DNA from: a virus
Virus genome (UHGV): UHGV-0124904
DNA: 14,033 nucleotides
Strand: one strand, 5' to 3'
The notes under the pieces are model-generated. The model did no database searches. It had not been told where the DNA came from and saw nothing but the letters and a program-made list of their open reading frames with translations. The position numbers were made by a program, and so were the translations under genes. Of this stretch, positions 1,198-12,160 are shown one piece after another; position 1 is the first letter of the stretch; the number at the start of each line of letters is the position of its first letter.

Positions 1198-1535
1198 TGC
1201 TTCACCCCCTTCTCACAAAGTAACTCCAGGCGGGTCCCGTTTTCGGCAGAAATAGCCGACTGAATGTCGTATATCTCGCCGTTACCGGTTGGTGGCAGAT
1301 GAACGGCGCGCCAGCCTGTGGATACCGGAATGCCGGGATAGCGACGCATCCAGATCCGTGTTGTGGTGCTGCTTACCTCAGCTCCACCCTCAATCCTCTC
1401 TCGGCCGGATACGTCCGCAACCTCAGCACGCACTGAAGCCACATCCACCCAGCCAGTGGCAGGCTGACCGGAAGGCAGGCGCCCAGACGCTGGCTTTTGT
1501 AACGTAACCCGGTGTCGTAGTCGTCCCGCTTTCAT
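1194..1535 (-). CDS. Head-tail adaptor / head closure protein (phage head-tail joining family)
   Basis: 113 aa; N-terminal MKAGRLRHRVTLQ and ...DVSGRE...IWMRRYPGI... pattern typical of head-tail joining proteins; ATGA overlap with the connector gene. Confidence 0.7.
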   Translation of the reverse strand: MKAGRLRHRVTLQKPASGRLPSGQPATGWVDVASVRAEVADVSGRERIEGGAEVSSTTTRIWMRRYPGIPVSTGWRAVHLPPTGNGEIYDIQSAISAENGTRLELLCEKGVKQ

Positions 1536-1858
1536 ACGCCATATATCCGGTAGGGTTGAAGAAGCGCTTCGGTGGAGAACGCAAGCGCAGAAGTTACGTT
1601 ACCTACGTTTACAGCTTCACGGTTTGCGTACCAGTGACCGATAAGCAGCAGCATAGCCATTTCGATATCTTCGCCATAAAGCAACCGATCTGGGTCAGCA
1701 AGATAGCCAGGATCATCGGCAGTGTCATAAAGCCGACGGCGGGTCCACGTTTCGACGTACCGCGCCGCAGCCTTAATACTGGTAGCGATCCAGATATCGT
1801 CTTCCGTGAAATCCTGCTCAATGTTGCAGTGGCGCTTAACCTGCTCTTTGGTCAGCAT
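1532..1858 (-). CDS. Head-tail connector protein (HK97 gp6-like)
   Basis: 108 aa beginning MLTKEQVKRHCNIEQDFTEDD...AARYVETWTRRRL, the characteristic gp6-like N-terminus; positioned after the capsid gene. Confidence 0.8.
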   Translation of the reverse strand: MLTKEQVKRHCNIEQDFTEDDIWIATSIKAAARYVETWTRRRLYDTADDPGYLADPDRLLYGEDIEMAMLLLIGHWYANREAVNVGNVTSALAFSTEALLQPYRIYGV

Positions 1859-1867
1859 GCGCGCCCC

Positions 1868-2053
1868 TTACTTGCCTTTACCCTTGCCTTTCGGCTCAGG
1901 GTCTTTTTCCGGATCCGGCGTCCTGGCGCCGGGATCTTCGGCGTAACCGCGGTTTACAAGCTCGCGGCCGTGCTGCTCCAGCGTCTCGAACTCAGTGCCT
2001 TCGGTAAGCACGTTGCCTTCAAAGTAGATGGGCTTGATAGCGATCAGCTTCAT
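1868..2053 (-). CDS. Small hypothetical protein with C-terminal (GK)n tail
   Basis: 61-aa ORF ending EPKGKGKGK; AGGAGA Shine-Dalgarno 6 nt upstream of the ATG; lies between capsid and connector genes. Confidence 0.5.
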   Translation of the reverse strand: MKLIAIKPIYFEGNVLTEGTEFETLEQHGRELVNRGYAEDPGARTPDPEKDPEPKGKGKGK

Positions 2054-2068
2054 GGCTGTCTCCTTTAA

Positions 2069-2097
2069 GGAAAAAGAAAAGCGGCCCGCAGGCCGCC
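2069..2097 (-). terminator. Intrinsic terminator just downstream of the major capsid gene
   Basis: Perfect 6-bp GC stem GCGGCC(2081-2086) / CGCA / GGCCGC(2091-2096); on the minus strand followed by TTTTCTTTTTCC. Confidence 0.65.
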
Positions 2098-2105
2098 ATT
2101 AAGGT

Positions 2106-3326
2106 TTACGCACCGCCACCAGCAGCAGGCGCAGTGAAGGATCCGTAGATGAAAGCTTCCGGGCGTTTCACCGCCAGCGCCAGGCGCTCTTCGCAGCGAA
2201 TCGAGATCATGTTTTTCTCGAAGTCGTCGGCGTTCTCAGTGGAGATCACCACGTTGGCATCTTCACGGTCGAACAGCTGGGCAGCGGCGTTGAATGCACC
2301 GGTAAGGAACTTGCCCTGGAATGCGGCAGCTTCGGTCGCCACCACCGGCAGGCCCCACAGGGTTGGCCCGGTCAGGGCCGCCGGGTTCGCCAGGATATAG
2401 CGGCCCAGCGTATCCTTGGTGAGTTCAATCTTCGCCCAGTCAATGAAGTGCAGGACGTGGCCGGAAGCCGGGAAGCGCGCCAGCTGTGCCTGTAGCATCG
2501 CGAGGCGCAGATCGTCGATACCGTTCTGCTGCTCAACCGTAAAGGCAGCGTCGTATGCAGACGCCTGCGGCACGATGCCTTTCAGGTGCGCGCCGGTACC
2601 GTCGCCAAAGAGAATTTCCTGCTCTTCCACATACTTCAGTCCGTAACGCATCTCAGCATCAATGGTGGACTGCAGCTGAGCGAAATCGTCCAGGATCTGC
2701 TTGGACGCTTTGAACATGTGCGCGATGGTGGTCACCGGAGTGATCTGCGTGGCGAACTGGATATCGCTGTACGGCTTGGCGGTGCCTTCCGGCACGACTT
2801 TCGCCGCATTGGTGAATCCGGTCTGCTGCACCCAGAAGATGGCTGGCGCCGAGGTGCGGCCCGGAGCAATCAGATCCCGGATGAAGAGGCGCTGCTTCGG
2901 CGCGGTATCAATACCCGGCAGGCGCTGCGGCTCGACCACGCCGGTTGCCACGTCAGTGGAGATCAGCGCAGCATTAACCGGAACGCTGACGCGCTTGCCG
3001 CCTTCAACGCTTGCCGCGAAAGCTTTTAGCGCTTCACTGCTGATAACGGTCTGGCCGACGGTCTCGATAATTTTTGTAGCGCTGGCCAGCGGCATCTGAG
3101 CTACCTGCTGCTCAATTTCACCTACTGAAGATTTCAGCGACTTAAGCGCATCGTTCAGCGCATTGTGTTCAGTGGCAATTTTATCCACTGCCTCTTTGGT
3201 TTGCGCGGACAACTGACCAGAGCTTTTAGCCTCCTTCAGCGCGTCCTCGGCTTTCTGGCTGAAAGTGCCGGAAACTTCTTCCAGCTTCGCAGAAACTTTT
3301 TTCAGTAATTCGTTAACTTCAGACAT
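2106..3326 (-). CDS. Major capsid protein, HK97 fold, with N-terminal delta (scaffolding) domain
   Basis: 406 aa. First ~100 residues are a Lys/Glu/Ala-rich predicted coiled coil (delta domain), followed by a capsid-like body; follows the prohead protease gene and no separate scaffold gene is present. Confidence 0.9.
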   Translation of the reverse strand: MSEVNELLKKVSAKLEEVSGTFSQKAEDALKEAKSSGQLSAQTKEAVDKIATEHNALNDALKSLKSSVGEIEQQVAQMPLASATKIIETVGQTVISSEALKAFAASVEGGKRVSVPVNAALISTDVATGVVEPQRLPGIDTAPKQRLFIRDLIAPGRTSAPAIFWVQQTGFTNAAKVVPEGTAKPYSDIQFATQITPVTTIAHMFKASKQILDDFAQLQSTIDAEMRYGLKYVEEQEILFGDGTGAHLKGIVPQASAYDAAFTVEQQNGIDDLRLAMLQAQLARFPASGHVLHFIDWAKIELTKDTLGRYILANPAALTGPTLWGLPVVATEAAAFQGKFLTGAFNAAAQLFDREDANVVISTENADDFEKNMISIRCEERLALAVKRPEAFIYGSFTAPAAGGGA

Positions 3327-7230: not shown

Positions 7231-7728
7231 TCATTTGCGCTTTTTAAGAAATTCATCCAGTGGATCGGCCTCAGCCGGGCCTTTAGCGCCAACCTTGGAC
7301 CGGCTGGCCGGGGTCATGCCGAATTCAGCGAGCATTGCCCTGATGCGCTTCCACGCATCGGCTTTCATTACTGCCGCCGGGTGCGGCTTAATCATCCTGA
7401 TTTCCCGCTCTTTCCCTTCGTCCGGTTCATCCTCGCTGTAGACGGCGTAGGTGTAACCTTCCCGCTCTAACGTCTCGCAGTGATTCCGGTACTCTGTGTA
7501 AGCCTCGATCAGCAGTTCAAGTGCTTTACCGTCCAGGGTGGTCATCACCCCGACAGCATCAAGCTCTTCGCCAATTCGCTTAAACCAGTACTTCCCCATC
7601 TTGTCGAAATGCTTCGGAACTGGGGGGACCCCAGAAGCGGGTTTTGGCTCGTCTTTGTTGACAGCTCGTTTTGATGGGTTCCCCTTCACCAAAGCCAGAT
7701 GTGTCGGGGTTTTCGGTGGTCCTGGCAT
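7231..7728 (-). CDS. Terminase small subunit (P27-family-like)
   Basis: 165 aa, Pro/Lys-rich N-terminus and C-terminal EFGMTPASRSK motif typical of P27-type small terminases; ends 3 nt before the TerL start; AGGAG 9 nt upstream of the ATG. Confidence 0.8.
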   Translation of the reverse strand: MPGPPKTPTHLALVKGNPSKRAVNKDEPKPASGVPPVPKHFDKMGKYWFKRIGEELDAVGVMTTLDGKALELLIEAYTEYRNHCETLEREGYTYAVYSEDEPDEGKEREIRMIKPHPAAVMKADAWKRIRAMLAEFGMTPASRSKVGAKGPAEADPLDEFLKKRK

Positions 7729-7920: not shown

Positions 7921-8121
7921 TCAGTCGAGGTGAAAGTCATCGCTGAGGTTGCGCCGCCGCGCGCTGCTGGCATTGTGCGGGCAGGCGCTGGAGTTATGGC
8001 CTGACTGGCCGTAGTAACCGCAGCGCAGGTTCGCACGGCGGGCTGAGCCTCCCCATGTCTTTGGGCAATTTGCTACGGTGTGCAGCGTCGAGCCGCAGTA
8101 GGTGCAACGCGTATAGCTCAT
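7921..8121 (-). CDS. Small tandem zinc-knuckle-like (CCHC) protein, function unknown
   Basis: 66-aa ORF with ATGA overlap onto the HNH stop. Unit 1 CTYCGSTLHTVANCP fits C-x2-C-x4-H-x4-C; unit 2 CGYYGQSGHNSSACP has the same spacing with Tyr replacing the second Cys. Confidence 0.5.
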   Translation of the reverse strand: MSYTRCTYCGSTLHTVANCPKTWGGSARRANLRCGYYGQSGHNSSACPHNASSARRRNLSDDFHLD

Positions 8122-8468
8122 CGGGTTCTCTCCGTTGCGGTCTTGCGCTTATGGCATGGCCAGCACAGCGATTCGAGGTTGCTGTCGTCGTCTGTCCCGC
8201 CGTGAGCTCTCGGGATAATGTGGTCCACCGTTTCCGCTGGGCGTGGTCTGCTGTTGCGCAGGCACTGCTGGCAGATGTGTCGATCACGCTTAAGGATGCG
8301 GGCACGGATGATGTCCCACTTACTGCCGTAGCCACGCTGGTGGCGGCTCAGGCCGCGCTGATGCTGCTGCCACCCTTCGTTACGGTGGGTTTCGCAGTAG
8401 CCAGAACGATCCGTAGTTGTGCCAGAGCAACCTCGCTTACGGCATGCTCTGGGAATAGCTGCGGGCAT
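8118..8468 (-). CDS. HNH endonuclease (packaging-associated)
   Basis: 116 aa; N-terminal Cys cluster (CRKRGCSG...YCETH) and HNH core VDHIIPRAHGGTDDDSNLESLCWPCHKRKT; located just upstream of TerS as in HK97-like cos phages. Confidence 0.9.
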   Translation of the reverse strand: MPAAIPRACRKRGCSGTTTDRSGYCETHRNEGWQQHQRGLSRHQRGYGSKWDIIRARILKRDRHICQQCLRNSRPRPAETVDHIIPRAHGGTDDDSNLESLCWPCHKRKTATERTR

Positions 8469-9343: not shown

Positions 9344-9754
9344 CTAGCAATCAGCGTCCGGGCGCGCAATAGCTCGACAAGCCCACATACAGGCTTCCTG
9401 CATTTTGGTGCGCGCGATCGACAAACTACGCAGAGCATCATCAATTTCACACGCCTGCTCAGTACTCAACATCGCTGGCCCATTACGGAGAGCCAACAGC
9501 TCACCGCGTTCGGTATCGAGCAGGCTGCAGAAGTAACGACTGACGCCCTTCATACGGTTCATGCGCTCAATGTCGCCAGGTGTTAACGTGCGGTAGCCCT
9601 TAACGGTGCTGCCATCCTGCGGTTGTGCTTCGTTCATTGATTTACCTGTGATTGATGGGCCAGCTTCGCGACGCTTCACAGCGTGGCTAACCGTGTTGTG
9701 CAGAGTGGAGAACATCATCAGGCGCTCTTCTTTAAAGCGCCTGGGGCTGCTCAC
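9344..9754 (-). CDS. Hypothetical protein translationally coupled to Rz1
   Basis: 136 aa; ATGA overlap with the Rz1 stop; C-terminus has a Cys cluster (CMWACRAIARPDADC). Start uncertain (internal Met candidates). No family recognised. Confidence 0.4.
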   Translation of the reverse strand: MSSPRRFKEERLMMFSTLHNTVSHAVKRREAGPSITGKSMNEAQPQDGSTVKGYRTLTPGDIERMNRMKGVSRYFCSLLDTERGELLALRNGPAMLSTEQACEIDDALRSLSIARTKMQEACMWACRAIARPDADC

Positions 9755-11162: not shown

Positions 11163-11588
11163 TTAAGCTGCAGAGGAAACAGTTGGAACGCAGTACTTTT
11201 GGTAATAATTTTTTATTACTGGCCTAACATGAGGTGACAGATTGAACCCACCCAGGATGCGTTGAAACGTTCCTTCGCTGCAAGGATCATGAATTCGTAT
11301 GTCCCCAGCACTGACTCGCTGGATAACCGAATCAGCACCAAAAATTTCTGCTCGCCTATAAAAGACATAACTTGGATGCCGAACAAAAGGATGATCACCA
11401 ACATTCAACAGACAAGAAGAGTCGGGTTCGATTCCGTCAGCTATAGAGGTTAAATTAACGGCAAGGAAAGATTCTTTTGCAAGTTTGGGATAAAATACGG
11501 GGTCGTTACAAATGAAGAACAAATGCTCCTTCGAACCAGAAAGGAGCATAATCGTGCCTTTTTGTACTGGGCTGAAGTCCGCTGTCAT
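11163..11588 (-). CDS. Hypothetical protein, candidate toxin/effector partner of the Panacea-domain gene
   Basis: 141 aa; ATGA start/stop overlap with the upstream Panacea-domain gene; GC-poor; no family recognised. Internal Met14 is an alternative start. Confidence 0.6.
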   Translation of the reverse strand: MTADFSPVQKGTIMLLSGSKEHLFFICNDPVFYPKLAKESFLAVNLTSIADGIEPDSSCLLNVGDHPFVRHPSYVFYRRAEIFGADSVIQRVSAGDIRIHDPCSEGTFQRILGGFNLSPHVRPVIKNYYQKYCVPTVSSAA

Positions 11589-12160
11589 TTCAATCCGTAA
11601 GCAATTGAATCTAGTTCGGAGAATTCTCTCATCCTGTCAGATAAATGTCTAACAAGTTCTTCAGGTTTTCCAAGCGCCCGGAACACATTTTCAGGATTTA
11701 TTGTAAACGCACCGCCACGTGGATCGGTCCATTCAGGACATTTTGAATGGGTATAATCCCTGATCTCCCATTTACTCATCTTACCGAAGCTTGCATAGAC
11801 GGCATCTAGAATTGAAATCTCAGCCTCACTGAGTTCATCTAAATCATCACGACTTAAGCTGTCACATAAAAGCTTAAGCTCATAATTGTCAGCATCAGAA
11901 ATCCAATTTTTCCAACCTTCTTCGCCCGTTTCTGTACCATTCATGAGGTCTAAAGAACGAGATAAGACTGGACCATGCGGCATGGCCACCATGCGGTCAC
12001 CTGTGATAGGCTCACCGAAACGGTCCATTGATTCTCTATCAGAGAGGTACATCAATTTCATGAGCTTAAGGTATGGCATGCGTCCACCGCCTTTCGACAG
12101 TAGATAGGCGGCCATCTGAGCCACTCTTTCTTCGCAAAACATATTAGCCCCCCTACTCAT
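11585..12160 (-). CDS. Panacea (DUF4065)-domain protein, likely PanA/SocA-type antitoxin
   Basis: Hallmark LKLMKLMYLSDRESMDRFGEPITGDRMVAMPHGPVLSRSL (K-L-x-K-L-x-Y...G-x-P-I...GPV pattern) plus a C-terminal ...W...DYTHS..PEW segment. Probable true start is Met7 (ATG at 12142..12140, AGGGGGG 6 nt upstream), giving 185 aa. Confidence 0.7.
   Translation of the reverse strand: MSRGANMFCEERVAQMAAYLLSKGGGRMPYLKLMKLMYLSDRESMDRFGEPITGDRMVAMPHGPVLSRSLDLMNGTETGEEGWKNWISDADNYELKLLCDSLSRDDLDELSEAEISILDAVYASFGKMSKWEIRDYTHSKCPEWTDPRGGAFTINPENVFRALGKPEELVRHLSDRMREFSELDSIAYGLK

Follow-up and report, generated by a model that had tools for sequence, protein, structure and literature searches.

A conserved 61-residue protein encoded behind the capsid gene of an HK97-like phage, possibly a packaging tether of the lambda gpFI type

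The 61-aa open reading frame (ORF) that follows the major capsid gene in UHGV virus genome UHGV-0124904 is, judged by sequence comparison, a genuine and conserved protein gene, and its product belongs to the Pfam family DUF7210. The predicted fold of the protein, the position of its gene and its modular plan point to a packaging helper of the lambda FI type rather than to a decoration protein. By analogy with gpFI, we tentatively propose, at slightly less than even confidence, that the protein acts as a tether between the prohead and DNA or terminase; we infer both these partners and the effect on packaging.

The gene and its place in the late operon

The window, by which we mean the whole stretch of 14,033 nucleotides that was analysed, carries a lambdoid or HK97-like late operon with all of its genes on the minus strand. 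According to profile and ORF assignments, the operon starts with genes for the antiterminator Q, a holin and a lysozyme, continues with those for an HNH endonuclease, the P27-family small terminase TerS, TerL, the portal and a ClpP-type protease, and ends with those for the major capsid protein (MCP), the 61-aa protein, the adaptor Ad1, the head closure protein Hc1, a gp10-like protein and the tail terminator. The names of TerL and TerS, including the P27 designation of the latter, were taken over from E. coli prophages that match in RefSeq. The complete coding sequence of the 61-aa protein (1868..2053, minus strand) comprises 61 codons and a TAA stop and is defined by the ORF call and by matches in Pfam, phrog_5463 and RefSeq. 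Its translation, MKLIAIKPIYFEGNVLTEGTEFETLEQHGRELVNRGYAEDPGARTPDPEKDPEPKGKGKGK*, ends in EPKGKGKGK, as had been predicted. The original prediction had also placed the gene of this small protein between those of the capsid and the connector, and this was borne out: the gene for an HK97-type MCP of 406 aa (2106..3326, minus strand; Pfam Phage_capsid, 1e-54) lies 5' of it, the gene for the gp6-like head-tail adaptor Ad1 (1532..1858, minus strand) lies 3' of it, and the product itself matches DUF7210. The ATG of Ad1 is 9 nt past the stop codon of the 61-aa ORF. A 170-aa antisense ORF (1556..2068, plus strand) was rejected on account of its overlap with two conserved genes of the opposite strand.

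The 61-aa protein is identical to RefSeq WP_113456681.1 from E. coli, and the same sequence occurs on 35 contigs in RefSeq/UniRef. Residues 1 to 38 align with positions 1 to 38 of the 38-position Pfam model DUF7210 (PF23843) at 35.3 bits, against a gathering cutoff of 27, and residues 1 to 53 match phrog_5463 with an E value of 2.3e-24. Both families are catalogued without a function, and the protein itself is already known there; literature searches on DUF7210, YqbF and mEp235 found no functional report. The frame is intact, with a length of 59 to 61 aa, in 80/80 of the closest IMG/VR loci (the best 80 of 519 matched). Pooled Nei-Gojobori analysis of 48 distinct coding sequences gave a dN/dS of 0.13 for the gene overall, 0.09 for codons 1 to 40 and 0.19 for codons 41 to 61. 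For the last eight codons, dN/dS was 0.056 at a dS of 0.99, which argues that the lysine-glycine tip is kept by selection at the protein level and not as a DNA repeat or as part of a downstream ribosome site. Conservation of the ORF as coding had been named beforehand as a check, and the Pfam match, the intact frames and the dN/dS all indicate that coding is strongly conserved.

Seventy-four clusters at 90% identity come from Escherichia, Cronobacter, Leclercia, Enterobacter, Erwinia, Pantoea, Pectobacterium, Yersinia and Sodalis, and homologues are found in cultured phages of Escherichia (mEp235 and Fraca), Klebsiella, Salmonella, Proteus, Pantoea, Providencia and Pseudomonas. The domain of the mEp235 homologue is 92% identical to that of the window over residues 1 to 38. 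A profile search that covered 1.84 billion representatives exhaustively yielded 100 clusters at 50% identity, so the DUF7210 family is real but small.

The position of the gene is conserved as well. In the 80 close loci, MCP lies directly 5' in 78/78 and Ad1 lies 3' in 80/80. In a more distant set of 81 loci, in which the domain is 55 to 68% identical to that of the window, MCP lies directly 5' in 78/79 and Ad1 lies 3' in 70/74, with upstream gaps of 33 to 54 nt; the upstream order is kept in 156/157 related loci. The MCPs of the more distant loci remain 73 to 87% identical to that of the window, whereas Ad1 falls to 29 to 58% identity. Therefore, the strictly conserved association of the 61-aa gene is with the capsid lineage. 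Within the close loci, the domain covaries with Ad1 at a rho of 0.53 and with MCP at a rho of 0.32, values that come from a narrow range of MCP sequences and from pairs that are not independent.

The same post-MCP slot is used in phages mEp235 and PseuP_224. The mEp235 protein gp6 (L001:4001-4201) is a DUF7210 protein annotated as 'head-tail connector I', a name that appears to be positional only, and the 136-aa Pseudomonas homologue in PseuP_224 was labelled gpFI-like by an independent GenBank submitter. In the Jilinvirus myophage ECOO78, the post-capsid slot holds gp51 (L085:3423-3770), which combines a beta domain with an HeH module. This protein is annotated as 'endonuclease VII' (phrog_3281), and the related phrog_1539 is labelled 'Arc-like repressor'; these two labels and 'head-tail connector I' are probable mis-annotations.

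The original prediction of a strong Shine-Dalgarno site after a capsid terminator agrees with what is found upstream of the gene. The Shine-Dalgarno sequence AAGGAG (2060..2065, minus strand) is separated by 6 nt from the ATG at 2053 and is kept in 22/22 intergenic variants from the 78 close loci that retain the upstream capsid ORF. Ahead of it, beginning 8 nt beyond the MCP stop, is a terminator-like or attenuator element (2071..2097, minus strand) that consists of a GC hairpin of 7 bp with a loop of 4 and a T-run; the hairpin reads GGCGGCC-TGCG-GGCCGCT at 2097..2080 and is followed by TTTTCTTTTT. The 55-nt intergenic RNA has a folding energy of -19.6 kcal/mol (z = -2.2 against shuffles). Almost every intergenic variant from the related loci (L004-L083 and L088-L168) retains the hairpin, with compensatory changes in the stem such as GGGCCGCC/GGCGGCCC, GGGCTGCC/GGCAGCCC and GGGCCACC/GGTGGCCC. 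The T-run follows the hairpin in only 20/79 of the more distant, Pseudomonas-like loci, where the Shine-Dalgarno sequence lies directly 3' of the stem, and the equivalent element in the mEp235 record is annotated as a rho-independent terminator. The hairpin may be an element of mRNA stability or attenuation that sets the ratio of capsid to downstream protein, rather than a plain intrinsic terminator. Lying 3' of this hairpin, the 61-aa gene would be expected to be expressed at a lower level than MCP.

Elsewhere in the operon, the gene for the HNH endonuclease (8118..8468, minus strand) adjoins that for the P27-family small terminase (7231..7728, minus strand). Such neighbours form the arrangement of the HK97 gp74 type, which has been linked to cos cleavage (PMC13595911), and the phage is therefore probably a cos packager. 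Between the lysis genes and the HNH and terminase genes, we observed a gene (9344..9754, minus strand) whose 136-aa product contains an Acb2/Tad1 hairpin domain (Pfam E = 1.4e-16) and by this match is a candidate anti-CBASS or anti-Thoeris nucleotide sponge. Between Q and the holin, a gene for a Panacea/SocA-like antitoxin-domain protein (11585..12160, minus strand; E = 2e-26) overlaps by 4 nt with the next ORF (11163..11588, minus strand), which encodes 141 aa and is without a Pfam match; the two may constitute a toxin-antitoxin or defence pair.

Domain, spacer and basic tip

Three parts can be distinguished in the 61-aa protein. Codons 1 to 40 (1934..2053, minus strand) encode a folded acidic domain with a net charge of -4, delimited by AlphaFold2 and by invariant columns, in which the motif KPIY...FET.EQHGREL..GYA is conserved. 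Codons 41 to 53 (1895..1933, minus strand; PGARTPDPEKDPE) encode an acidic, proline-rich spacer with a net charge of -2 that is predicted to be disordered from its low pLDDT, and codons 54 to 61 (1871..1894, minus strand; PKGKGKGK) encode a basic C-terminal tip with a net charge of +4. The protein as a whole is acidic, with a net charge of -2. In the AlphaFold2 model, which was built from a 27-sequence alignment, residues 1 to 41 have a pLDDT above 90 and form four short strands and one helix at residues 26 to 35, and residues 44 to 59 have a pLDDT below 50. The latter value is consistent with the flexible tail proposed in the original prediction; the tail is indeed basic at its tip, and its proposed role as a putative DNA binder is plausible. 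Given the charges of the three parts, the folded domain itself is unlikely to bind DNA.

Searches of PDB sequences with the protein and with two family profiles returned chance matches or none. By fold, the domain matched the L9 N-domain, the GINS B-domain, the C-terminal domain of lambda gpFI (2LSM) and YqbF in the PDB, the last two being the only phage structures among the matches. The domain model superimposes on 2LSM at 1.2 A over 40 residues; however, this is a generic 40-residue fold, and the fold scores of the L9 N-domain and the GINS B-domain equal or exceed that of 2LSM. Foldseek independently returned the same fold classes, with 2LSM at rank 10 (probability 0.92) and the YqbF structure 2HJQ at rank 25. 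Among predicted viral structures, the best fold matches were many small uncharacterised phage proteins, several of which are labelled DUF7210. Taken together with the charges, the model predicts that residues 1 to 40 form a small acidic domain of beta strands and a helix that shares its fold class with the C-terminal domain of gpFI. A role for the domain as an L9-like nucleic-acid binder was rejected on account of its net charge of -4. As the domain is acidic and is encoded in a phage head operon, its likeness to L9 and GINS reflects fold class and not function.

We surveyed 87 representatives of the DUF7210 family, of which 85 were scanned with Pfam; 74 of these 85 match DUF7210. Across the approximately 87 representatives, the plan is that of an acidic domain, an acidic spacer and a basic tip, with the DUF7210 domain almost always at the N terminus. 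The spacer is acidic and of low complexity, rich in Pro, Ala or Gln, with a median net charge of -3, and its length (from about 10 to about 90 residues) and sequence vary freely. Within the last 12 residues, at least four K/R are present in 74% of the 87 representatives and at least three in 86%. Twelve representatives have fewer than three K/R there, and at least eight of these bear a different C-terminal module, which matches HeH/LEM (best E = 3.7e-14), Rho_N (1e-9) or SAP or is an additional folded domain. By these sequence matches, most relatives that lack the basic tip have a nucleic-acid-binding module of the HeH, Rho_N or SAP type, or an extra folded domain, in its place.

In members of the Pseudomonas type, the tip is replaced by an extra domain of approximately 45 residues (FKAKHKGGGKWIVVDAEGNQVGEF...AEAERLVAGGEP; phrog_20529), which was seen in P0090, P0110 and P0114 and, at about 2740-2890, in L093, L099 and similar loci. 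One lineage (L151-L168 and neighbouring loci, at about 2620-2780) has a spacer of (PEQ)n repeats, where n lies between about 4 and 13, and a second has an (EP)n spacer; in both lineages, the domain and the basic tip are unchanged. The (PEQ)n lineage thereby offers a natural series of spacer lengths. We also observed that 11/85 representatives match Pfam DUF7302 (PF23976), with a best E value of 6e-5, which suggests that DUF7210 and DUF7302 are two overlapping models of one superfamily.

Comparison with gpFI and with other head proteins

In lambda, the gene order D, E (MCP), FI, FII places FI in the slot that the 61-aa gene occupies in the window order MCP, ORF, Ad1, Hc1. Both gpFI and the 61-aa protein consist of two modules joined by a long, acidic and flexible linker, with a net charge of -8 in FI and -2 in the 61-aa protein. 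The C-terminal domain of gpFI reportedly binds the capsid protein gpE. A published account describes gpFI as a bridge between the capsid and the terminase-DNA complex that is required in vivo but only stimulatory in vitro, and the need for it can be bypassed by mutations in terminase or capsid (PMC13595911).

Since fold scores for a 40-residue domain cannot prove homology, we compared sequence profiles. A trimmed profile of the DUF7210 domain (83 sequences) aligned with the gpFI C-domain at an hhalign score of 19.8 (P = 4e-4, probability 35%), pairing residues 15 to 40 with FI residues 106 to 131 through a common G-T-x-F, E, R-G and A. This score exceeded that of every one of 200 column permutations (mean 7.95, standard deviation 1.85, maximum 16.5). 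The HeH segments of DUF7210 variants aligned with the gpFI N-domain at 21.9 (P = 1e-4, probability 57%), a score likewise reached by 0/200 permutations, and cross-pairing controls of these comparisons scored 10.2 and 6.5. The L9 N-domain gave a weaker profile score against DUF7210 of 14.7, over the first 14 residues only and with approximate L9 sequences, and Pfam Ribosomal_L9_N had no match at E <= 0.05 among the 85 DUF7210 family members. The FI-side profile is shallow (Neff 1.2), because the sequences that a database search with lambda FI returned were all nearly identical and from E. coli (86% identity or more). Full-length alignments compared by hhalign with the single lambda FI sequence found the right region at scores that were not significant (P = 0.09 and 0.02), and only the domain-trimmed profiles with permutation controls are informative. 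On these profile scores, the DUF7210 family contains weak but specific counterparts of the two halves of gpFI, in swapped order.

The 61-aa protein itself matched neither Packaging_FI (PF14000) at E <= 0.1 nor the FI family phrog_92 at E <= 1. Membership in the FI family thus fails the profile test, and our proposal is that the protein works like gpFI, not that it is gpFI. The two proteins also differ in several respects. The folded domain is N-terminal in the 61-aa protein and C-terminal in gpFI; the helical second domain of gpFI is absent from the 61-aa protein, which has the 8-residue lysine-glycine tip in its place, and the HeH module that matches the FI N-domain occurs only in other members of the DUF7210 family. 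The 61-aa protein is shorter (61 aa against 132 aa), and its partner capsid would be of the HK97 type (PF05065), whereas that of gpFI is of the lambda E type. Taking gpFI as the nearest characterised system, the 61-aa protein may be described as a permuted, minimal variant of the gpFI type.

A remote member of the family is encoded by Thermus phage P74-26. Its protein gp89 (L084:3926-4150) matches DUF7210 over residues 33 to 69 at 28.2 bits, against the cutoff of 27, and is at most about 25 to 30% identical to the 61-aa protein. It consists of MPKPKK, an acidic stretch and KKPKP followed by DUF7210, an order that is reversed relative to the 61-aa protein, as in gpFI. In P74-26, the gene order is Dec gp87, the lambda E-like MCP gp88, gp89 and the adaptor gp90. 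High-resolution maps of the P74-26 capsid, portal vertex and neck comprise MCP, Dec, PVP gp34, the portal, the adaptor gp90, the terminator gp92 and the collar gp112, and the proteins built into the maps were confirmed by mass spectrometry in the same study; gp89 is not among these modelled capsid and neck proteins, and that structure paper makes no mention of it. In P23-45, capsid maps contain only MCP and an auxiliary protein. Capsids of this phage package DNA in vitro with purified components, so any role of the DUF7210 protein would be at most stimulatory. The P23-45 packaging paper makes no mention of gp90, the presumed DUF7210 counterpart by gene order.

A similar plan is seen in Bacillus subtilis skin-prophage YqbF (2HJQ) and in phrog_3281 and phrog_1539 proteins, in which a small beta domain at the N terminus is connected through an acidic linker to an HeH motif at the C terminus; the DUF7210 variants P0135, P0168 and P0144 are built in the same way. 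Like the ECOO78 gene, yqbF lies right after the capsid gene.

These comparisons bear on where the 61-aa protein might act if it is not a tether. An unlikely alternative is an accessory of the neck or of head completion at the portal vertex, where the protein would serve as an assembly chaperone for Ad1 or as a plug that touches the last-packaged DNA with its lysine tip, and where it may stay in low, flexible copy number. Ad1 starts 9 nt on in 78/80 close loci, and an Ad1 homologue follows in 70/74 of the diverse loci; the domain covaries slightly more with Ad1 than with MCP, the authors of the mEp235 record chose the name 'head-tail connector I', and a basic tip could contact DNA in the portal channel. 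However, the 61-aa ORF has no match among adaptor, closure or completion families, including Phage_connect_1 and the adaptor PHROGs, and the neck and portal vertex of P74-26 were built at high resolution without gp89. The steep divergence of Ad1 next to a well-kept MCP ties the conserved association to the capsid lineage, and the mEp235 name appears to follow from position only.

Lower still in probability is a decoration or cement protein, with the folded domain on the outside of the mature shell, the charged tail on its surface and the protein retained in the virion. Decoration proteins such as lambda gpD and P74-26 Dec are likewise small and encoded next to the capsid gene, as the 61-aa protein is, and the C-domain of its fold partner gpFI is reported to bind capsid protein (Popovic et al. 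2012). In lambda and P74-26, however, the capsid gene is preceded by the decoration gene and has FI or a DUF7210 gene, a separate gene, 3' of it, and the maps of P74-26 and P23-45 capsids show MCP with a separate Dec or auxiliary protein and not the DUF7210 protein. Searches of Pfam and PHROG and the fold search revealed no sequence or fold match of the 61-aa protein to known decoration families. The gene stands 3' of the conserved hairpin or terminator, from which we infer an expression below that of MCP, and with lengths between about 10 and about 90 residues, the spacer is unlike an ordered cement. The suggestion in the original prediction of a head-decoration or head-completion protein was not upheld, in view of the lack of a family match, the location of the gene past the conserved hairpin and the position of P74-26 gp89 outside the modelled proteins.

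The small size of the protein, its basic tip and its place in a head-gene operon would also suit an internal head protein that is packaged into the prohead and neutralises or anchors DNA with its lysine tip, a reading that we consider improbable. The 61-aa protein is acidic overall, a superficial look noted no scaffold-targeting or protease-site features, and nothing of the kind is reported in P74-26 heads; the HeH and extra-domain variants and the long acidic spacers fit an external tether better. Finally, a non-functional leader or spacer ORF, whose purine-rich 3' end (AAA GGC AAG GGT AAA GGC AAG TAA GGGG, Shine-Dalgarno-like, with the adaptor ATG 9 nt past the stop) would only serve the adaptor gene as a ribosome-binding sequence and as a means of translational coupling, can be practically dismissed, as the dN/dS of 0.13 overall and 0.056 over the last eight codons reflects amino acids that are kept while nucleotides are not, and as the family, with its confidently predicted fold, extends from Enterobacterales to Pseudomonas and Thermus phages. 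The notion that the lysine-glycine tail is a by-product of Shine-Dalgarno-like nucleotides is effectively refuted by this substitution pattern. Some other role in assembly accounts for the remaining probability.

A possible prohead tether and its implications

In the tether that we favour, the acidic folded domain would attach weakly to the MCP lattice of the prohead in the way that the gpFI C-domain binds gpE, and the acidic spacer would serve as a flexible leash that presents the basic tip. The lysine tip, or the HeH module in relatives, would hold DNA or the terminase-DNA complex. The packaging complex would thereby be concentrated on the prohead surface, leading to faster portal docking and cos cleavage. 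Such a protein would act transiently, without being an ordered component of the virion, and would be needed in amounts below those of MCP.

A broader reading, which we regard as doubtful, is that DUF7210, the YqbF-like proteins and gpFI constitute one widespread superfamily of tethers encoded after the capsid gene, with a swappable module order. Each member would combine a domain of 40 residues that docks on the capsid with an entropic acidic spacer of any length and a polyanion-binding tip, for which an HeH domain or a bare lysine cluster could be exchanged.

If the tether idea is wrong, the 61-aa gene is an ordinary conserved hypothetical phage gene. If the protein is a true capsid-to-DNA tether, it would offer a very simple test system, with only 61 residues, a deletable or swappable domain and a natural spacer-length series, and the misleading labels 'head-tail connector I', 'endonuclease VII' and 'Arc-like repressor' would be corrected. 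The question is of interest since the way in which terminase-DNA complexes locate the one portal vertex of the prohead is still poorly understood. The DUF7210 family is tied to a capsid lineage common to phages of Enterobacterales and Pseudomonas, and it reaches the Thermus phages. If the superfamily reading is true, the 61-aa protein would be near the minimal form, in which KGKGKGK, seven or eight residues, does the job of the gpFI helical domain; and gpFI, long regarded as an accessory factor specific to lambda, would represent a type of packaging-initiation helper that is general in HK97-like phages and not a peculiarity of lambda.
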